Notes: generated by a model not told the origin, from the letters alone. Positions 3,964 through 12,992 are shown, counted from the stretch's first letter. The stretch is 64,000 nucleotides of DNA from Kofleriaceae bacterium (GCA_965215005.1 CBDCCZ010000054.1:269069-333068), one strand, 5' to 3'. Numbers and translations are program-made.

Positions 3964-5289
3964 CTAGCGGCGCCAGGACGGCGCGCTGTGCAGATCCGGC
4001 GTTAGCTTCTGCGCGGCGAGCCACGGCTTGATACGGCGGAACGCCTCTTCGATGGCCTCCATGGAAGCGGCAAAGCTGATGCGAATGGCGTTGGGTGTGC
4101 TTTCGCCAAAGGCATCGCCCGGCACGACGCACACGCCGGTTTCCTGCAGCATGCGCATCGCGAGGTGTGAGCCATCGGTGTGCGGCGGCAGCGAGGGAAA
4201 GATGTAGAAGCCGCCCTGCGGCCAGTACCCACTGAGCTGCGGGCACTCGCTCACGAGCTGCACCACGCGATCCCGGCGCCGCGCGTATTCCGTCGTCATG
4301 ACGTCGACGCAGGAGCGATCGCCCTCGAGGGCCGCTACCCCAGCCCATTGGGCGGGCGTGTTAGCGACCGAGGTGGTGAACATGTGCAGTCGGCGAAGCC
4401 TGCGAATGGCGCCCATGCTGGAGATAACCCAGCCAATGCGCAGGCCTGGCATCGCGAAGGTCTTTGAAAAGCTGGATACGATGAAGACGTGATCGAGGTC
4501 TGCAGCGTACTGCAGCACGCTTGGGTATTCGATTTCGTCGAGGATGAGATGGTCGTAGACCTCATCGCTAAAGACCTTCACGCCGCGATACGCCGCCTCT
4601 TGTACGATGGCGTTGATGGTCTCTTTGGGATAGACGGTGCCGGTCGGATTGCTCGGCGAGTTGAGGATGATTCCCGCGGTGCGCGCGCCAATCTTGTTGA
4701 TGACCTCTTGTGGGTCGATCTGATGGCCGTGCTCGGCACGCGTGGATATTAACTTGACCTCACCGCCAAACATGCGAATGAGCGGCGCGTACAGCAAGAA
4801 CGACGGGTCTGGGACCAAGAACTGCTTGCCCGGCGTGACCGTGGCGGCCAACGCCAGATACATGGCCTCGGTTGCTCCCGAGGTAATGAGAACGTTGTCC
4901 TCGCTGAGCGGTCGCTGATAGCGCTCGCCATAGTATTTCGCCACTGCAGCGAGGAGGTCGGGCAGCCCTTGGTCCATCGTGTAGGCGGTGCGGCCTTCTT
5001 GCAGCGCCTTGATATGCGCCTCGATGATGTGTGGCGGCGTCGGGAAATCTGGCTGGCCGATGGAGAGGTGGATGACATCTTTCATGCCAGCAGCAACGGT
5101 GATCATCCGGCGAATTCCAGACATTGGAATTGCCTGCAGCGCCGGGCTCCACGTCGATTCGGGTTGAGCGATTTCGCCGTCGCTATCATCAGGTTTGGAT
5201 GCTTTTACCTGGAGATCTTCGCTATCCGCCGCGACCTCCGTGATCGAGTCATTCTTCGCTGCTTTGCTGCCGATACCGATCTCCGCCAT
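3964..5289 (-). CDS. PLP-dependent class I/II (aspartate-type) aminotransferase
   Basis: LSIGQPDF, ITSGATEA, NSPSNPTG, SDEVY, SSFSKTFAMPGLRIGW (PLP lysine), AIRISFA; acidic N-terminal extension of about 45 aa. Confidence 0.92.
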   Translation of the reverse strand: MAEIGIGSKAAKNDSITEVAADSEDLQVKASKPDDSDGEIAQPESTWSPALQAIPMSGIRRMITVAAGMKDVIHLSIGQPDFPTPPHIIEAHIKALQEGRTAYTMDQGLPDLLAAVAKYYGERYQRPLSEDNVLITSGATEAMYLALAATVTPGKQFLVPDPSFLLYAPLIRMFGGEVKLISTRAEHGHQIDPQEVINKIGARTAGIILNSPSNPTGTVYPKETINAIVQEAAYRGVKVFSDEVYDHLILDEIEYPSVLQYAADLDHVFIVSSFSKTFAMPGLRIGWVISSMGAIRRLRRLHMFTTSVANTPAQWAGVAALEGDRSCVDVMTTEYARRRDRVVQLVSECPQLSGYWPQGGFYIFPSLPPHTDGSHLAMRMLQETGVCVVPGDAFGESTPNAIRISFAASMEAIEEAFRRIKPWLAAQKLTPDLHSAPSWRR

Positions 5290-5387
5290 GCGATCAGACT
5301 ACGCCGCAGGAGCACGCGGATCAACGTGCGAGGTTTGACGGCTGCAGCGCGGCCCGATAACGTCACCGTTCGAACGCGAGGTTCTAA

Positions 5388-6390
5388 GTGAGTGCACAAG
5401 CGATACATTTGCCGGTGGTGGCGGTACTCGATGCCGAGCATGCTCCGCCATGGCCGGGTCTCGAGCCGCTCGCGGAACACGCTGAGGTGGTGCATTGCGC
5501 GGATGCCGGTGCGCTCGAGGAGGTCATGCAGCGCGCTGAGGTGCTGCTCGTTACCGACTTCCGCGCCACCATCAATTAAAACTGCCTGGCCCGATGCGAA
5601 GCGACTGTCGTGGGTGCACGCCACGAGCGCCGGCGTCGACATGTTGATGTTTCCCGAGCTGGTCGCGAGCGCCATTCCCGTGACCAACGCACGCGGCGTT
5701 TTCGACCGCACCATCGCGGAATACGTGCTTGGAATCGTGGCTGCGTTCGCGAAGGACTTTTGGCGAACACGCGCGCTGCAGCAACAGCAGCGTTGGCAGC
5801 ATCGCGATACCGAACGCATCGCGGGGGCCCGCATGCTGGTGGTCGGTGCCGGCTCGATCGGACGCGAGATAGCGCGACTAGCGCGCGCGGTAGGAATGCA
5901 GGTGAGCGGCCTGGCTAGACAGGCGCGAGATGACGATCCCGTGTTCGGCGAGGTATACGCGGCCGAGGAGCTGGCGCGGGTGCTGCCGCTTGCTGACTAC
6001 GTCGTGATTGCCGCGCCGCTCACCGAGGCTACGCGCCACCTTTTCGATGCGGCTGCGCTTGCTCTCATGAAGCCAACGGCGCGTCTGATCAATATCGGTC
6101 GCGGCCCCATCGTCGACACCGATGCGTTGGTGGCGGCGCTACGCGCAAATCGCCTCGCCGGCGCTGCCCTCGATGTGTTCGAAGAAGAGCCATTGCCGGC
6201 AAGCCATCCGCTTTGGGCGATGGAGCAGGTGCTGATCTCACCGCACATGGCTGGCGACTTTGCCGGCTGGCGCGAGGCGCTCAGCGCGCAATTTATCGCT
6301 AATTTTCATCGGTGGCGTGCGGGCCAGCCGCTCGTCAACCTCGTTGACAAACGCCGCGGCTACGCCGGGCCAGCTAAGGAGAGTGCATGA
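5388..6390 (+). CDS. D-2-hydroxyacid dehydrogenase (NAD(P)-dependent), +1 frameshift near 5575
   Basis: N-terminus in ORF 5388..5579 joins the 5392..6390 frame: WVHATSAGVD, TNARG, VVGAGSIG, INIGRG, GAALDVFEEEPLP, ISPHMAG. Confidence 0.88.
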
Positions 6391-7818
6391 CTGCCTCGTC
6401 TGCCATTGCCGAGCTCACTGCTGCTGAGCTCCTCGAGCTCTATCAGACCAAGAAGCTATCGCCGGTGGAGGCAGCGAAGGCGTGCCTTGCGCGGGTCCGC
6501 GCGCACAACGACGCGGTGAACGCCTACCGCTTCGTGGACGAGGACACGACGCTGCGACTCGCTAGCGAATCCGAGGCTCGCTACCTTGCCGGCGAGCCGC
6601 GCGGCAGTCTCGACGGCGTGCCGGTGGCGGTTAAAGATGTTTTTCTCATCAAGGGGTGGCCAACGATCAAGGGCTCGCACGCGATCGCCCGCGATCAACC
6701 TTGGGATATCGACGCGCCGGCCATCGCCGCGCTTCGTCGCAACGGGTTTGTTCCCCTGGGCATGACCACCACGCCGGAGTTTGGTTGGAAGGGCGTTACC
6801 GACAATCCGGTGGACGGTGTCACTCGCAATCCGTGGGATCCCAGTAAGACTGCGGGTGGCTCGAGCGGCGGCAGCGCGGCGGCAGTGCCGCTCGGCATGG
6901 GGCCTTTGGCGCTCGGCACGGATGCTGGTGGATCGATTCGTATACCCGCGGGATTTTGCGGCATCGTTGGCCATAAGCCCACGATGGGCCGAGCGCCGAT
7001 GTGGCCGCCGAGCGCGTTCGCCCCGCTCGCTCACGTGGGTCCGATGACGTGGACGGTGCAAGATGCGGCGCTGCTGCTCGATGTGTTGACCGAGCCTGAT
7101 TCCCGCGATGCCACTCTGCCTGCCAATCATAGCCGATTCAAAGATTCACTCGAGGGTGGCATCAAGGGCCTGCGCATCGCGTTCAGCCCCGCGTCTGGGC
7201 TACGTGGACATCGTCGAGCCGGAGATCGCTGAGGCAGTGGCCAGCGCCGCAAGAGTGTTTGAAACGCTAGGGGCGCGTGTCGAGGAAGTCGACCCTGGCT
7301 TCTCCGATCCACTCGAGATGTTTGACCGCATGTTCTATGGCGGCGCCGCAAACGCTCTGCGGGATCTGTCAGACGAACAGAAGTCCAAGATGGATCCGAA
7401 CTTGGTGTTGGTCGCACGCGAAGCTTCCAAGCTGACGATGCTCGAGTACCTCGAGGCCAGCAATCTGCGTCTACGGCTGATCGAGCGCATGAGCCTCTTC
7501 CATACCCATTACGACTTGTTGCTCACGCCTTCGCTGCCTATCGTGGCATTCGAGGCCGGGCGCGAGGTGCCTGCCGGCTGGCACAGCCCCCGCTGGCCCA
7601 CGTGGACGCCATTTACCTATCCATTCAATCTGACCGGGCAGCCGGCGTGTTCCGTGCCTTGCGGCTTTACCTCAAACAAACTGCCGATCGGCCTGCAGCT
7701 GGTGGGAGCCGCGCACGCCGACGACGTCGTGTTGCGCGCCGCGCACGCCTATCAGATCACTCGCCCCTTGACGGATCGTCGCCCAACGCTGCACGAAGCG
7801 GCGCAAGGAACAACATGA
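6387..7818 (+). CDS. Amidase-signature family amidase, +1 frameshift near 7187-7190
   Basis: GVPVAVKD, GGSSGGSAAAV, LGTDAGGSIRIPA; continues in the 7108..7818 frame (YDLLLTPSLP, FTYPFNLTGQPACSVPCG, LPIGLQLVG); ATGA overlap with the upstream gene. Confidence 0.9.
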
Positions 7819-9233
7819 ACCAGACCCCGGTGAAGATAGGTGGCTCGCCAGTGACCAAGGCGCGCACCATCGAGATACGCAATCCGTACAACGACGATGT
7901 CGTGGGTATCGTGCCGCAGTGCGACGCTGCCGATGTAGACCGCGCGTGTAAAGCGGCGAAAGCGGCACTCGATCGCGATGACTTTCCGCAACATCAACGC
8001 GCGGCGGTTCTGGAGCGCGCCGCGGTGCTACTTCGTAGCCGCATAGAGGAGCTAGCGCGCATCATCATGCGCGAGGGCGGCAAACCGATACGAACCGCGC
8101 GCAGCGAGGTCGAACGGTGCGTCGACACTCTCGTATTCTCGGCGGTCGAAGCGCGCAAGCTCACTGGTGAAATGATCCCAATGGCGGCCAGTGTCTCTGG
8201 GGCCGGAAAATTGGCCTTCGCGCTGCGGATTCCCATTGGGGTCATCGGCGCCATCACGCCATTCAACTTTCCGCTCAACCTCGTGGCCCACAAGCTCGCG
8301 CCGGCCATTGCCGCGGGGTGTCCTGTGGTGCTCAAGCCGGCACCGCAGACGCCCCTGACCGCGCTGGCGCTCGTCGACCTGTTGTTCGAGGCTGGCTTGC
8401 CGCAGGACTGGATTTCTACCGTCACCGATGGTGGCAAAGAGGCAGGCGAGCCGCTGGTCGAGCACGACATCCCCAAGATGATCACGTTTACCGGTAGCGC
8501 TCCGGTGGGCTGGATGATCGCCAGTAAAGCCGCTAAGAAGCGCGTCTCGCTCGAGCTTGGCTCCAACTCGCCGCTCATCGTCGAGCCAGACGGCGACGTC
8601 GACACCGTCATCAAGAAGCTCGGAGCTGCGGCGTTCGGCAACGCCGGCCAGAGCTGCATCTCGGTTCAGCGCCTGTTGGTGCACGAAAGCATTTGCGCGC
8701 CGTTCACCGATAAGCTCATCGCCGCGATGCGCGGCTTGGTCGTTGGCGACCCGGCTGACGAGAAGACCGATGTGGGCCCGATGATTCGTTCACAAGAGAA
8801 CGAGCGAGTGGCCGCGTGGCTGCAGGAAGCGGTGCAGGCAGGGGCCAAGGTACTGCTCGGCGGCAAGCCCGAAGGACGCCTATTTCCGCCCACCGTCGTC
8901 GCCGATGCGCCCTCCTCATGCAAGCTCTATCGCAATGAGGTCTTCGGGCCGGTCCTCCTCGTGAACAGCTATCGATCATTCGATCAGGCCATCGAGATGG
9001 CCAATGATAGCGACTTTGGCTTACACGCCGGCGTCTTTACGCGCAACCTGGGCCGTGCGCTGGAGGCGGCTAAGCGGCTCGAGTTTGGCGGCGTGTTGAT
9101 CAATGAGGTGCCGACCTTTCGCGCCGATCAGCAGCCGTACGGCGGCGTCGCAGATGCAGGCAACACCCGCGAGGGCCCCGCTTATACAGTTGCCGAAATG
9201 ACGGAGCTGCGCTTCGTGAGCTTGCAGGCGTGA
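7815..9233 (+). CDS. NAD(P)-dependent aldehyde dehydrogenase
   Basis: AITPFNFPL, VVLKPA, FTGS, LELGSN, NAGQSCIS (catalytic Cys), EVFGPV; start ATG at 7815 overlaps the amidase stop (ATGA). Confidence 0.93.
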   Translation: MNQTPVKIGGSPVTKARTIEIRNPYNDDVVGIVPQCDAADVDRACKAAKAALDRDDFPQHQRAAVLERAAVLLRSRIEELARIIMREGGKPIRTARSEVERCVDTLVFSAVEARKLTGEMIPMAASVSGAGKLAFALRIPIGVIGAITPFNFPLNLVAHKLAPAIAAGCPVVLKPAPQTPLTALALVDLLFEAGLPQDWISTVTDGGKEAGEPLVEHDIPKMITFTGSAPVGWMIASKAAKKRVSLELGSNSPLIVEPDGDVDTVIKKLGAAAFGNAGQSCISVQRLLVHESICAPFTDKLIAAMRGLVVGDPADEKTDVGPMIRSQENERVAAWLQEAVQAGAKVLLGGKPEGRLFPPTVVADAPSSCKLYRNEVFGPVLLVNSYRSFDQAIEMANDSDFGLHAGVFTRNLGRALEAAKRLEFGGVLINEVPTFRADQQPYGGVADAGNTREGPAYTVAEMTELRFVSLQA

Positions 9234-9240
9234 CCGTGCG

Positions 9241-9273
9241 CGAGCGGACGCCTCGTTTGCGGACGTCCGCTCG
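9241..9273. terminator. Hairpin between convergent ALDH and Bor-like genes
   Basis: cgagcggacg...cgtccgctcg, a perfect 10-bp stem. Confidence 0.55.
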
Positions 9274-9281
9274 GCCCGTGC

Positions 9282-9638
9282 TCAGTATGCTTCGCCCGGG
9301 GCGCCGCCATACAGGCCTTCGCCGCAGTACACGCTGACCTCGCGAAACTCGACCAGCGGCACCACAAAGAAGGTGAGCGAGTTGATCACGCTGCCGACCA
9401 CGCTGTTGAGAAAGCTCGTGCGGTCGACGAGCAACGCCGGCTCACCGTAGCTTGCGCACGCCAAATCGAGGTCGACTTCCTCTGCCTCGATGATTCCGTA
9501 GATGAGTGCAATGTGCCAGTGCTCGTCGTAACGCTGCGAACGCGCCTGCGGTTGTGCGTTCAGGTGATACACTGTTTTGTAGCAAGCAGTTGACGACAGG
9601 ATGAGCACTGTCAGAGCAAGAGTGATGCTGGTCCTCAT
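9282..9638 (-). CDS. Bor/Iss-like small lipoprotein
   Basis: Lipoprotein signal (LSSTAC-YK), HIALIYGII, conserved Cys, TSFLNSVV, final VSVYC. Confidence 0.6.
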   Translation of the reverse strand: MRTSITLALTVLILSSTACYKTVYHLNAQPQARSQRYDEHWHIALIYGIIEAEEVDLDLACASYGEPALLVDRTSFLNSVVGSVINSLTFFVVPLVEFREVSVYCGEGLYGGAPGEAY

Positions 9639-9979
9639 CGCCCTCGCTCCCCGAAGGTATCCACGGCGCAGGTTACCGTGGTGGTGCGCGGCGCATACAA
9701 CCCAAGGGTGATGAGCGTCAGGACCGTGTCGAGCGGCGTCTCGCGCGAGAAGATCTTGGCGACGCCTGGGGCGCCGCAGTCACGGCCCGCCCACACGTGC
9801 TCCTCACCAATCAGCCCCCAGAGAAAAAAGTGCAAGTCGTATTCGATTTGCCGATACGACTGCACTTTGTGAGGTGCGCGATAGGTGAGGCGCGAGCAGC
9901 CGAGGAGCCCCCAAGCCATCGCCAGCACGATGATGACGGAAGCGAGCTGGCGGCGAGACGAACGAACGGACGAACACAT
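9635..9979 (-). CDS. Bor/Iss-like small lipoprotein
   Basis: Lipobox LLGC, HFFLWGLIG, ETPLDTVLTLITLGLYAPRTTTVTC matches the Bor family pattern; 4-bp overlap with its paralogue. Confidence 0.7.
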   Translation of the reverse strand: MCSSVRSSRRQLASVIIVLAMAWGLLGCSRLTYRAPHKVQSYRQIEYDLHFFLWGLIGEEHVWAGRDCGAPGVAKIFSRETPLDTVLTLITLGLYAPRTTTVTCAVDTFGERGR

Positions 9980-10033
9980 GGGTTAGCCTCCTCGGCCAGA
10001 TGACCTTTCGCAGGAGATTCATCGAGCAGCATA

Positions 10034-10086
10034 GACGGCATCACAGGATGCCGTCACCCCCCCTTCTGCTCGTTCGTGACGAACGA
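10034..10086. promoter_or_regulatory. Two adjacent perfect inverted repeats (terminator and/or operator)
   Basis: gacggcatc-acag-gatgccgtc (10034-10055) and tcgttcgt-g-acgaacga (10070-10086). Confidence 0.45.
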
Positions 10087-10117
10087 CGCATGCCGCCCCA
10101 ACCCGACACGATGTAGG

Positions 10118-11389
10118 TCACGCTGTTGCGTTTAGCGCCTCTTCGAAGATAGCAACGGCGGTATCGACTTGGTCTTTGGTGACCACCAGCGGCGGCAGCC
10201 AGCGCGCGACGTTGCCAAAGGCCCCGCAGCGCAACATGAGAAGTCCGCGCCGCTCGACCTCCTCTAGTAGCTTTGCGGTGCGGTCGCCATCGGGTTTACC
10301 GCTCGCATCGACCATCCAAGTGCCGAGCATCAAGCCCTTGCCGCGGATGTGGCCGATGGCGCCGTGCTGCTTCTGCAGCTCGATGAGCCGCGCACGCAGA
10401 TGCGCCCCCATCCGCTCGGCGTTCTCCACCAGCTTCTCCTCGCGGATGACGCGAAGCGTGGCTACCGCCGCCGCGGAGGCCACTGCGTTGCCACCGTAGG
10501 TGCCGCCCTGCGAGCCCATCCAACCCTTAGCCATCAGCTCTTCACGCGCGCCGAATGCCGACAATGGAAAGCCGCTCGCGAGTCCCTTGGCGGTGATGAC
10601 AATGTCCGGTTGGGCATCGAAGTGCTCGTGTCCCCAGAACTTGCCGGTCCGGCCGTAGCCGGCTTGGACCTCATCGAGAACCAGCAGAATACCGTGCTCG
10701 TCGCAGCGCTCGCGCAGGCCAGCCAGGAAGGCGGCATTGGCGGGCGTGTAGCCGCCCTCGCCTTGAATGGGCTCGATGAAGAATGCCGCTGTCTCGTTGG
10801 GAGCGCAGTAGGTCATAAAGATGCGATCGAGCTCGCGCAGACAGAACTCGGTCGTGGTTGCTTCATCCCAACCGTAGTGAAATGGATCGGGGAACGGCGC
10901 CACGATCACGCCACCCATTAGCGGCTGCAAGCCGGCGCGCAGCTTTACGCTCGAGGTCGTCATCGACAATGCGCCGACGGTACGGCCGTGAAACGAGCCG
11001 TGGAACACGATGAGGTTCGGCCTTCCGGTCGCGTGTCGACAAAGTCGCATGGCGGCCTCTACAGCCTCGGTTCCGGCGCTGGCGAAGAAGAACCGGTCGA
11101 TGGGGCTCGGCATCACCTCCGCGAGCCCCGCGCTCAGCTCCTTGAGCTTGGGATGCATGACAGTGGTGTATTGCCCATGGATCAAGTTGCCGGCTTGCTC
11201 GCGCGCGGCCGCGACGACCGCCGGATGGCAGTGGCCGGTGCTGGTCACGCCGATACCCGACGTAAAGTCCAGATAGCGCTTGTCCTCAGGGTCAAAAAGA
11301 TAACAACCCTCGCCGCGCACCGCCGTGACTCGACTCGATTGTTTGAGCAGCGGCGAAAGTTGTCCATCTCGTGTCGATGCAGTTCCCAT
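10118..11389 (-). CDS. Class III PLP aminotransferase (GabT/diaminobutyrate-type omega-aminotransferase)
   Basis: YLDFTSGIGVTSTGHCHP, SAGTEAVEAA, FHGRT, FIEPIQGEGG, LVLDEVQAGYGRTG, DIVITAKGLASG, GTYGGN; ATG at 11389 with a GAGGGA RBS. Confidence 0.92.
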   Translation of the reverse strand: MGTASTRDGQLSPLLKQSSRVTAVRGEGCYLFDPEDKRYLDFTSGIGVTSTGHCHPAVVAAAREQAGNLIHGQYTTVMHPKLKELSAGLAEVMPSPIDRFFFASAGTEAVEAAMRLCRHATGRPNLIVFHGSFHGRTVGALSMTTSSVKLRAGLQPLMGGVIVAPFPDPFHYGWDEATTTEFCLRELDRIFMTYCAPNETAAFFIEPIQGEGGYTPANAAFLAGLRERCDEHGILLVLDEVQAGYGRTGKFWGHEHFDAQPDIVITAKGLASGFPLSAFGAREELMAKGWMGSQGGTYGGNAVASAAAVATLRVIREEKLVENAERMGAHLRARLIELQKQHGAIGHIRGKGLMLGTWMVDASGKPDGDRTAKLLEEVERRGLLMLRCGAFGNVARWLPPLVVTKDQVDTAVAIFEEALNATA

Positions 11390-11420
11390 GCAACGAGCAT
11401 CCCTCGCTGCCGAGTCTCGA

Positions 11421-12590
11421 TCAACCCGAGCGGTGCAGCGCTCCGAGAATCGACTCAGCGATCGCTGCGGTGGTGCGCCGCGCCTGGCCATGCTGGCGCA
11501 GGTCCTCTGCGACGGCTGCATGGAGGCGGCGGGCGGCGCTGGCTGCCCGAGGATCTTCTTGCCCCATCCAATCGAGCATCATGGCAGTGGTTAGTAGCAT
11601 CGCTCGGGGATCGGCGATGTCCTGACCGACGATATCCGGCGCGCTGCCGTGAGTCGGCTCGAACATGGGTGGCCGCGAGCGGTCGGATGGATTGATGTTG
11701 CAGGATGGCGCAACGCCCATGCCTCCACACAAAACCGCCGCGAGGTCCGTGAGAATGTCACCTTGCAAGTTGCTTGCAACGACGACGTCGAACATCCATG
11801 GGCTGGCGACGAACTTCATGCACGCTGCATCGACCAACTCATGATGAGTGGCGATATCTGGATAGTTCTTGGCAACCTCGGCAAAGACCTCAGTCCACAT
11901 CTGGCCCCAGTAGGCAAGGGCGTTTCGCTTGGTCACAAGACACACTTGTGCTGCCGCATCGCTGCCAGCGGCGGTGCGGAACTGGCGTGGGCGTCGTGCT
12001 CCGGCCGCACGCTCTGCGGCACGCTGTCGGGCACGCTCGAAGGCGTGAGTAAAAATTCGCTCGGCGCCGCGGCGCGTAAACACTTCCACCTGCGTGGCGA
12101 GCTCAGCAGGGCTGCCTACGCCCACGCGACCGCCCTGGCCGATGTATTCGCCTTCGCTGTTTTCGCGAATCACCAGTAAGTCGAGCTCGCCGGCGCGTGG
12201 ATCGGCGAGATATTGCCGCGCGCCTTCGATGGTGATAGCCGGACGCTCGCATGCCCATAAGTCGAACCCCTGGCGAATCTCGAGCAGCGGCGCCAGCGAA
12301 ACACCATCTGTCAACCGAAAGCGGTCGGTGGCGGTGAGCGGCCCGGGATCGCCGAGGGCGCCCAGCAGCAGCGCATCGTACTGCGCCAGCTGCGCTTTCC
12401 AGTCGCCGGGCATGCCCGCGCCGTTCTCGGCATAGTATGCGGTGGACGGCCACGCGAGCTCAGTGAGCTGCAAGCGCAGCTCGCCGAGCGCCGCGAGCGC
12501 GTCCGCGGCAACGCGCATCACCTCGGGACCGATGCCATCTCCCGGCGCGAGCGCGATCTTCCATTGGCTACGTGCGGCGCTCTCGACCAT
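11421..12590 (-). CDS. Isocitrate/isopropylmalate dehydrogenase family protein, tartrate dehydrogenase/decarboxylase-like
   Basis: PGDGIGPEV, LLGALGDP, VIRENSEGEY, VTKRNA, VDAA, DVVVASNLQGDILTDL, MFEPTHGSAPDI. Confidence 0.85.
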   Translation of the reverse strand: MVESAARSQWKIALAPGDGIGPEVMRVAADALAALGELRLQLTELAWPSTAYYAENGAGMPGDWKAQLAQYDALLLGALGDPGPLTATDRFRLTDGVSLAPLLEIRQGFDLWACERPAITIEGARQYLADPRAGELDLLVIRENSEGEYIGQGGRVGVGSPAELATQVEVFTRRGAERIFTHAFERARQRAAERAAGARRPRQFRTAAGSDAAAQVCLVTKRNALAYWGQMWTEVFAEVAKNYPDIATHHELVDAACMKFVASPWMFDVVVASNLQGDILTDLAAVLCGGMGVAPSCNINPSDRSRPPMFEPTHGSAPDIVGQDIADPRAMLLTTAMMLDWMGQEDPRAASAARRLHAAVAEDLRQHGQARRTTAAIAESILGALHRSG

Positions 12591-12593
12591 GAC

Positions 12594-12992
12594 TCAGTCT
12601 TTGATTTCTTCGGCGGCGAGCTCGTACGAGCCGTCTTTGTTGTGTACTTCGGTGCCGTGTAACGCTGGACTGAACACGCACGCGAGCTCGAGCTCGCTAT
12701 GAGCGCGCAGCACGTGCTTGTCGTGCTTGTCGAGCGCATAGATCATACCCGGCGAAATCGGGTGCTTTTCCCCCGTTCGCAGGTCTTCGATCTCGCCCTC
12801 GCCCTGGATGCAGTACACCGACTCCAGGTGGTTTTGGTACCAGAGCTGGAGCTCGGCGCCGCGATAGATGGTGGTGATGTGAAACGAGAAGTTCATCTCG
12901 TCGTTCTTGAGAAGGAGTCGCACTGACTCGAATCCCTCGGAGGAGATACGGCGTTTGCTTTTCCTGGCTTCTTGAAGACGTCTTACGATCAC
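12594..12992 (-). CDS. ectC: Ectoine synthase (cupin), solitary
   Basis: GTG start at 12992 with a GGAG RBS gives 132 aa: (M)IVRRLQEA...FSFHITTIY...[16 protein letters not shown]...YALDKHDKH...[19 protein letters not shown], the EctC signature. Confidence 0.92.

Follow-up and report, generated by a model that had tools for sequence, protein, structure and literature searches.

Why should a gene for ectoine synthase (ectC) lie apart from other ectoine genes, in the company of aminotransferases, dehydrogenases and an amidase? The question is raised by positions 3964-12992 of a 64,000-nt stretch of DNA (hereafter the window) from a Kofleriaceae bacterium (GCA_965215005.1 CBDCCZ010000054.1:269069-333068). 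A first-pass annotation had assumed that this ectC heads a catabolic operon and that its product opens the ectoine ring. Our analysis suggests a different answer in two parts: (i) the window's ectC is, with good probability, a biosynthetic gene whose position beside the other genes is not a conserved design; and (ii) the six other enzyme genes, judged by their distribution, form a conserved module that needs no ectC as neighbour and that probably acts on a compound of the ectoine pathway.

The genes of the locus, in order along the window, are:

3964-5289, minus strand: class I pyridoxal-phosphate (PLP) aminotransferase, AT1 (longest open reading frame 441 aa, family match from about residue 45; PF00155, E 2.6e-68)
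5388-6390, plus strand: D-2-hydroxyacid dehydrogenase, HDH, frameshifted at 5573/5575 (PF02826, E 2.6e-54)
6387-7818, plus strand: amidase of the amidase-signature (AS) family, PRK06169-like, frameshifted at 7186-7199 (NF004815)
7815-9233, plus strand: aldehyde dehydrogenase, ALDH (PF00171)
9282-9979, minus strand: two small overlapping lipoprotein-like genes, one of them (9635-9979) Bor-like (PF06291, E 4e-15)
10118-11389, minus strand: class III aminotransferase, gamma-aminobutyrate (GABA)-aminotransferase-like, AT3 (NF005993, 473.7 bits; cut-off 574)
11421-12590, minus strand: beta-decarboxylating dehydrogenase, tartrate/D-malate dehydrogenase-like, TDH (TIGR02089, 305.8 bits; cut-off 470.4)
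12594-12992, minus strand: ectC (NF009806, 180.6 bits, cut-off 128; PF06339, 184.7 bits, cut-off 27)

HDH, amidase and ALDH form a plus-strand run joined by ATGA overlaps at 6387-6390 and 7815-7818. AT1 is divergent from this run, and a minus-strand run of ectC, TDH and AT3, with gaps of 3 nt (ectC-TDH) and 31 nt (TDH-AT3), is convergent on it. The layout is thus as first described in its gene families, order and coupling, but it is not intact: HDH and the amidase are frameshifted, and the lipoprotein-like genes lie between the two operons.

The ectC gene and its pathway

The gene is a clear ectC, and neither ectA, ectD nor eutD/doeA was found in the window by genome-wide profile searches; on both points the first-pass annotation was right. 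EctC passes both curated cut-offs, and in alignment with 5BXX and 5ONM it keeps Glu57, Tyr85, His93, Arg25, Thr40, Tyr52, Ser23, Phe107 and Cys105. The residues looked for in a synthase are all present, both the iron ligands (Glu57, Tyr84-85, His92-93) and the substrate residues (Arg25, Asn/His38, Thr40, Tyr52, Ser23, Phe106-107), with roles as given in PMC6344544. In an EctC tree of 132 columns, in which many forks are unresolved, the window's protein stands among operon-type EctCs, and the other EctC of the genome stands with Rhizobium-type orphans. Its nearest named relative is that of Microbulbifer yueqingensis (72%), and ectB adjoins 47 of the 49 ectC loci related to it. By these features the window's EctC is of the canonical ectABC-operon type. 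It is unlike canonical EctCs in being detached from ectAB, in carrying Phe in place of Trp21, and in lying 3 nt upstream of TDH-AT3. With the orphan EctCs (groups 2 and 3 of Czech et al. 2018, e.g., in Pseudomonas syringae B728a) it shares a place outside an ect operon; however, it lacks their two-residue Trp shift and does not branch among the Rhizobium-type orphans as the genome's other EctC does. Orphans are marked by a basal clade, a shifted Trp and a genome often without ectAB, a description that does not fit it.

Trp21 is described as invariant among 437 operon EctCs (PMC6344544), and the Phe at this position in the window is supported by a contig assembled from the source run. Phe21 is likewise found in the EctC of an ordinary ectABC operon in a relative (G011, loci L138/L157), so that the substitution is probably tolerated; for the same reason, the idea that it marks a reversed EctC function was rejected.

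The rest of the pathway is encoded elsewhere in the genome. The host is a Haliangium-related myxobacterium (ribosomal protein S3 is 92% identical to that of Haliangium ochraceum), in agreement with the first-pass annotation, and its genome is 92.8% complete. On the same contig as the window, about 175 kb off, ectA and ectB both score above their cut-offs in one 610-codon frame, a fusion (G000:C54:104943-106697; L001:9932-11698, minus strand) that stands behind a LysC-type aspartokinase gene (ask) with no ectC adjacent. There is also a second ectB (654 bits) behind an aspartokinase gene (L002:8901-12295, G000:C24), divergent from a MarR-like gene and without ectA or ectC, and the second ectC of the genome, on another contig, is of the shifted-Trp orphan type. 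A relative, G016, likewise has the EctA-EctB fusion behind aspartokinase (L396:7991-9730, minus strand), another ectB, and an ectC that stands alone and shares 66-67% identity with the window's; no orthologue of the amidase was found in it. Because ask-ectAB lies elsewhere without an ectC, in the same layout as in G016, we read the window's gene as the synthase of a split pathway. The gene had been called solitary, which it is only locally, and its product is likely an ordinary, displaced ectoine synthase, predicted to cyclise N-gamma-acetyl-L-2,4-diaminobutyrate (N-gamma-ADABA).

AT3 was compared with EctB as well. Its score on the EctB model TIGR02407 is 196.7 bits, below the cut-off of 552.2; its N-terminus (MGTASTRDGQLSPLLKQ) is without the ESxVRSY stretch of EctB, as had been noticed from the start; and its best solved relatives are PuuE and GabT. 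By profile and motif it is not an EctB.

Known genes for ectoine breakdown and uptake were sought as well. EutD is absent from the genome search (best TIGR02993 score 31.9 bits, cut-off 613), and EhuB reaches at best 25.6 bits genome-wide (cut-off 190.9; TRAP-type UehA/TeaA were not searched). No EctD exceeds the cut-off genome-wide, in a search whose control was silent in this genome and whose model matched other genomes. There is no EutE/DoeB among the window proteins scanned, to which that search was confined. No DUF3830 protein was found in this genome, and the idea of one as its ring opener was dropped.

The second ectC (L003:9623-12663) lies near a gene for a stand-alone adenylation protein. 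In another relative (G012, L164:6626-10188), the genes that abut an orphan-type ectC encode an adenylation protein, a small protein resembling a carrier, and a prolyl-carrier dehydrogenase of the PigA/RedW-like kind (NF053553, 437.6 bits, below the cut-off of 500), and a similar dehydrogenase gene stands beside an orphan-type ectC in G028 (L165:9798-11662). Orphan EctC, dehydrogenase and adenylation/carrier genes may possibly constitute a pyrrolyl-carrier cassette.

The module and its link to ectoine

Two samples of loci define the module. At the best 80 of 477 amidase matches, the amidase gene is accompanied by AT1 (61 loci), HDH (37), an Ldh_2-family reductase (24), TDH (24, two of them partial), SSADH (23) and AT3 (21). 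At the best 80 of 175 AT1 metagenome matches, HDH (67) and TDH (61) are the most constant partners of AT1, followed by the amidase (16) and AT3 (13). AT1 orthologues at module loci are 57-72% identical to that of the window. The gene that is missing is ectC: it adjoins the module in none of 80 amidase, 79 TDH, 80 AT1 metagenome and 38 AT3 loci, nor in any of 16 ectC loci of relatives, 11 of which have ectB beside ectC. Among all 213 fetched loci with at least one module orthologue at 50% identity or more, none has ectC; many of these loci are short or near-copies, and 147 of them, each with two or more module genes, extend over 15 kb or more. One locus (L170) reproduces the architecture of the window minus ectC. 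The gene set is therefore not conserved beside ectC, and a catabolic operon headed by EctC is no conserved arrangement.

Module carriers are found among marine Gammaproteobacteria, Planctomycetes and Actinobacteria. Within the host family, only 1 of 36 other genomes has an amidase orthologue, which suggests horizontal gain of the module in this genome. Co-transfer of ectC and the module from one donor was considered and found unsupported: in four of the five genomes whose module orthologues are close, ectC is only 50-52% identical and stands beside ectB, and the fifth has none. A reduced AT1-HDH-TDH form, which sometimes includes AT3 and never the amidase, recurs often within a single marine lineage (L248-L253 and most of L274-L333). 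In Marinimicrobium agarilyticum (L089:18073-20706), ectD is found some 6-8 kb away from the module, together with genes for a medium-chain reductase and for a dehydratase-like member of the proline-racemase family. The module of this strain (DSM 16975) is intact and has all six genes; that of Halopseudomonas salina CGMCC 1.12482 (L088) is intact too, but without AT3.

The link to ectoine is drawn from gene co-occurrence and neighbourhood. The genomes behind 49 of the 80 amidase loci were searched; ectA is present in 42 of these 49, ectD in 18 and EutD over its cut-off in none, although four have EutD-like genes at 400-543 bits. In an even set of 251 genomes from the order of Halopseudomonas salina, 15 carry an AT1 orthologue; all 15 have ectA (background 108/251) and none has eutD (background 12/251). 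The co-occurrence with ectA has a naive p of about 1e-5 after removal of two already known genomes, with kinship ignored. In the phylum of Prauserella flavalba (251 genomes), the amidase has orthologues in eight, of which six have ehuB (background 18/251), and in three of the eight ehuB lies 0.8, 1.4 and 7.4 kb from the amidase gene. The ehu-adjacent cluster L390 has HDH, amidase and ALDH in the same order as the window, plus AT3, and its ALDH is 65% identical to that of the window, which is only about 34% identical to the SSADH type usual in the module.

At three other loci (L125, L262 and L263), orthologues of AT3 (56-61%) and of HDH or the amidase are found in one operon with a EutD-like hydrolase gene. 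These operons further hold genes for an ArgE-type deacylase, a class I aminotransferase without a helix-turn-helix part, SSADH and a FAD-linked D-2-hydroxyacid dehydrogenase, so that the same functional slots appear to be filled by unrelated proteins; L349 resembles them, with a more distant M24 enzyme. MocR regulators are the best-scoring models for the aminotransferase-like neighbours in L125 and L262, but the DNA-binding part is missing (only profile positions 101-447 are matched), and we read these proteins as stand-alone enzymes.

In its actinobacterial form (L085, L097, L350, L353, L356, L360-L362, L390-L395) the cluster also includes DUF3830, a GntR regulator and two genes of EutA/arylmalonate-decarboxylase-like type, and at some loci ehuABCD is its neighbour. 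DUF3830 is a candidate for the opening or isomerisation of the ring; a literature search on it returned no paper.

A proposed route through D-malate and its rivals

The substrates and step order given here are predictions made from gene content, family membership, co-occurrence and linkage, which are observed. Across families, the recurring slots are an alpha-transaminase, a 2-oxo-acid reductase, a deacylase, an omega-transaminase, a semialdehyde dehydrogenase and a D-2-hydroxy-diacid dehydrogenase. We tentatively suggest that a split-pathway ectC lies here beside a module that degrades N-gamma-ADABA, or free diaminobutyrate (DABA), to pyruvate via D-malate; in exactly this form, we give the proposal somewhat less than an even chance. 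AT1, in which the PLP-lysine motif SFSK is found, would be the alpha-transaminase and would convert the free alpha-amino group to a 2-oxo group (4-acetamido-2-oxobutyrate), which HDH, as 2-oxo-acid reductase, would reduce to a D-2-hydroxy acid. The amidase (motifs GGSSGGS and D.GGSIR.PA) would be an N-deacetylase that takes off the acetyl group to give 4-amino-2-hydroxybutyrate. AT3, as omega-transaminase, would then transaminate the terminal amine to produce malate semialdehyde; ALDH, as malate-semialdehyde dehydrogenase, would form D-malate; and TDH, as a decarboxylating D-malate dehydrogenase, would yield pyruvate and CO2. The cell's own ectoine pathway would supply the substrate, either by overflow from EctA or by a slow back-reaction of EctC that the later steps draw on. 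An endogenous source is favoured because most proteobacterial loci have no transporter and the link with ectA is tight. The first-pass annotation had proposed that the host scavenges the osmolytes of its prey; with no EhuB found in the genome and no Ehu transporter in the cluster, that idea finds no support, and an endogenous substrate fits better.

The scheme makes a stereochemical prediction. Ldh_2 enzymes are expected to yield L-hydroxy acids. TDH has orthologues in 18 genomes, all 18 of which have the D-specific HDH beside the amidase, and in 0 of 24 genomes with an Ldh_2-family reductase; the prediction holds. The best match of TDH in the PDB is the tartrate dehydrogenase/decarboxylase 3FLK (E 5.4e-66), with which it has the specificity stretch D.(I/V)SL...LL..R in common, and by its scores it represents a divergent subfamily of the tartrate/D-malate dehydrogenases.

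A number of observations weigh against this reading. The proposed substrates are read off from the names of families and from genomic context, and TDH falls below its family cut-off (305.8 vs 470.4 bits). The commonest form in the AT1-centred sample (44/80 loci) has only AT1, HDH and TDH, and in 4/4 genomes of this form no amidase orthologue was found. Because this form lacks the amidase and AT3, free DABA or other host enzymes would be needed; such substitution is plausible, since EctB takes GABA in reverse (PMC5924519). The 24 Ldh_2-type loci have no AT3 or SSADH orthologue nearby, and many actinobacterial clusters have no AT1 orthologue and hold DUF3830 and two EutA-like proteins that stand outside the proposed route. 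Seven of the 49 amidase genomes have no ectA; the absence of eutD among ectA-positive AT1 carriers is not significant (0/15 vs 10/93, p = 0.35); the carrier genomes are not independent (Microbulbifer makes up most of the Ldh_2 set); and the association of ectA with the module may reflect only a common saline habitat. In the window itself, two module genes, HDH and the amidase, are frameshifted in this assembly, and the gap of only 3 nt between ectC and TDH hints at co-transcription, which a purely biosynthetic role does not explain.

Three other accounts of the module's substrate can be considered. One is that the substrate is unrelated to ectoine, e.g., another N-acyl or 4-amino-hydroxy acid that gives malate semialdehyde, that ectA and ehu co-occur with the module in salt-adapted lineages, and that ectC is adjacent by chance. 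The uniqueness of the ectC adjacency to this genome, the kinship of the genomes compared, the choline/betaine transporters among the neighbours (L072, L095, L119) and the amidase that stands alone in unrelated contexts (L168, L264) are all in keeping with it. We nevertheless consider it unlikely, because ehuABCD adjacency in three of eight actinobacterial carriers and EutD-like genes in L125, L262 and L263 are hard to ascribe to habitat, and because ectA is found in 15/15 carriers where the background is 43%.

A second account, which seems to us improbable, is that the module degrades 5-hydroxyectoine: hydroxy-DABA would be converted to 3-hydroxyaspartate (AT3, ALDH), then to oxaloglycolate (AT1), and then to tartrate or glycerate (HDH, TDH). 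Under this scheme the AT1+HDH+TDH core would catalyse three consecutive steps on one skeleton, and a tartrate dehydrogenase as the best solved match of TDH, the EutA-like genes of the actinobacterial clusters and the import of hydroxyectoine by Ehu would all fit. It is harder to reconcile with the distribution of ectD, which passes its cut-off in only 18/49 amidase genomes and 9/18 TDH carriers (ectA is present in 18/18 TDH carriers), and with this genome, in which neither ectD nor Ehu was found. It also requires a ring-opening enzyme, which most carriers lack, and glycerate kinase was not noticed among the recurring neighbours, though no search was aimed at it.

The third account, the route of the first-pass annotation, is decidedly improbable. 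It makes ectC a dedicated catabolic gene: EctC would open ectoine, the amidase would give DABA, AT3 aspartate semialdehyde, ALDH aspartate, and AT1 oxaloacetate. What survives of it is an amidase/aminotransferase/ALDH set that is conserved, linked with ectoine and in most cases present where EutD is not. The absence of EutD from this genome's search results, the 3 nt between ectC and TDH-AT3, the parallel of amidase, AT3 and ALDH with the DoeB-DoeD-DoeC slots (PMC5924519), the Phe at a Trp21 called invariant, and a finding, cited in PMC3187862, that the reaction was reversible in Halorhodospira halochloris crude extracts are in its favour. However, purified EctC gives no or minimal back-reaction, i.e., ectoine hydrolysis (PMC3187862, PMC6344544), Phe21 also occurs in the ordinary ectABC operon of G011, the ectAB genes elsewhere in the genome need a synthase, and ectC adjoins the module in 0/213 loci; the last two findings are among the outcomes that the first-pass annotation had itself named as refuting its route. 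Nor does the order from DABA through aspartate to oxaloacetate have a job for HDH and TDH, the most constant partners of AT1; it leaves these two idle, whereas the D-malate route employs all six enzymes.

A dual role for EctC is possible, because the product of the back-reaction, the N-gamma isomer, has the free alpha-amine on which the route depends, and ectA without EutD is the usual state among carriers. The 3-nt coupling of ectC to TDH is suggestive of such a role, but it is a single case. A broader conjecture, which we regard as doubtful, is that ectoine producers without EutD (Halopseudomonas, Marinimicrobium, Microbulbifer, Bremerella, some actinobacteria and this myxobacterium) recycle ectoine via reversed EctC, draining N-gamma-ADABA to pyruvate through alpha-transamination, D-reduction and D-malate; the ectC-TDH-AT3 operon would then join an entry enzyme to the pathway it feeds.

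There remains the question of whether the copy in this genome is functional. Intact relatives of HDH align to 5406-5573 in one frame and to 5575-6378 in another, with the true N-terminus at a GTG at 5388, and the amidase is likewise split over two frames, with the break at 7186-7199. Scored apart, its halves give 402.3 and 255.2 bits on NF004815 (cut-off 506), where an intact relative (L072) scores 666. Contigs from the source run start exactly at 5575 and 7193, beside gaps that no read covers, in a region where the depth is about 2. Since the breaks coincide with these contig starts and the catalytic motifs are intact, both frameshifts are probably errors of the assembly consensus. There are no in-frame stops, and the long pieces are still 58-66% identical to their relatives. 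A rough screen of the assembly, in which 521 of 1566 external proteins were used, gave four frameshift-like loci (the window's amidase included, one doubtful) against 59 intact ones. That this copy, as distinct from the family, is decaying, with HDH and the amidase true pseudogenes and the split-pathway ectC the sole functional gene, is very unlikely: two frameshifts inside 1.7 kb of one operon and the rarity of the amidase in the host family speak for it, but both breaks are the first base of a source-run contig next to gaps in depth-2 coverage, the frames are otherwise sound, and three further such splits (one doubtful) occur elsewhere in the assembly. The gene order from ectC to ALDH is not a mis-join, because one independently assembled source-run contig covers 7193-13200 without differences.

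Of the remaining features, the lipoprotein-like genes at 9282-9979 have no tblastn match in loci L001-L132 or L152-L167, and appear to be an insertion between the two operons and outside the module. A promoter and terminator scan of the locus gave nothing beyond chance.

Known systems and implications

The closest known system is the Eut/Doe pathway of ectoine catabolism (EutD/DoeA, EutE/DoeB, Atf/DoeD and Ssd/DoeC), as in Halomonas elongata, Ruegeria pomeroyi and Sinorhizobium meliloti. The module resembles it at the family level in having a deacylase, a class III aminotransferase and an aldehyde dehydrogenase, and its relatives adjoin ehuABCD or a EutD-like hydrolase gene in some actinobacteria. 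It differs in that EutD, the defining enzyme of Eut/Doe, was not found in this genome, in that its deacylase is an amidase-signature enzyme, and in having three further enzymes, AT1, HDH and TDH; moreover, the cluster here has neither transporter nor regulator. For the last two steps, carnitine catabolism provides a model: conversion of malic semialdehyde to D-malate and on to pyruvate by an ALDH and a tartrate-dehydrogenase-family enzyme has been demonstrated there (PMC11353897), and the module pairs an ALDH with a beta-decarboxylating dehydrogenase of the same family. The likeness to the Acinetobacter proteins is one of family and not of direct comparison; there is no CntA/CntB-like oxygenase among the window genes scanned, and the semialdehyde would here arise from a transaminase.

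EutD-based clusters without EutE have been proposed in Gram-positive bacteria (PMC13188858), in a paper whose available text does not use the words amidase or hydroxyacid. A literature search, mostly of open-access papers and of their text, found no description of the module; its novelty may also depend on Fig. 7 of PMC13188858 and on the data that accompany PMC5924519 and PMC6344544. An undescribed, ectoine-linked catabolic pathway with a D-malate mechanism is a credible interpretation of these genes.

Finally, we note what these findings would mean. The solitary ectC of this myxobacterium is more ordinary than it seemed, most likely a displaced canonical synthase. For the module, if the D-malate route is true, it would be a leak to delete in ectoine production strains. 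It would also account for what becomes of N-gamma-ADABA, a compound that DoeB/EutE does not accept and whose fate the literature leaves open (PMC3187862, PMC5924519). Surveys of ectoine consumers take EutD as their marker (PMC5924519, section 8.2; PMC13188858), and if there is indeed a second route, many marine and actinobacterial ectoine degraders would have been missed by them.

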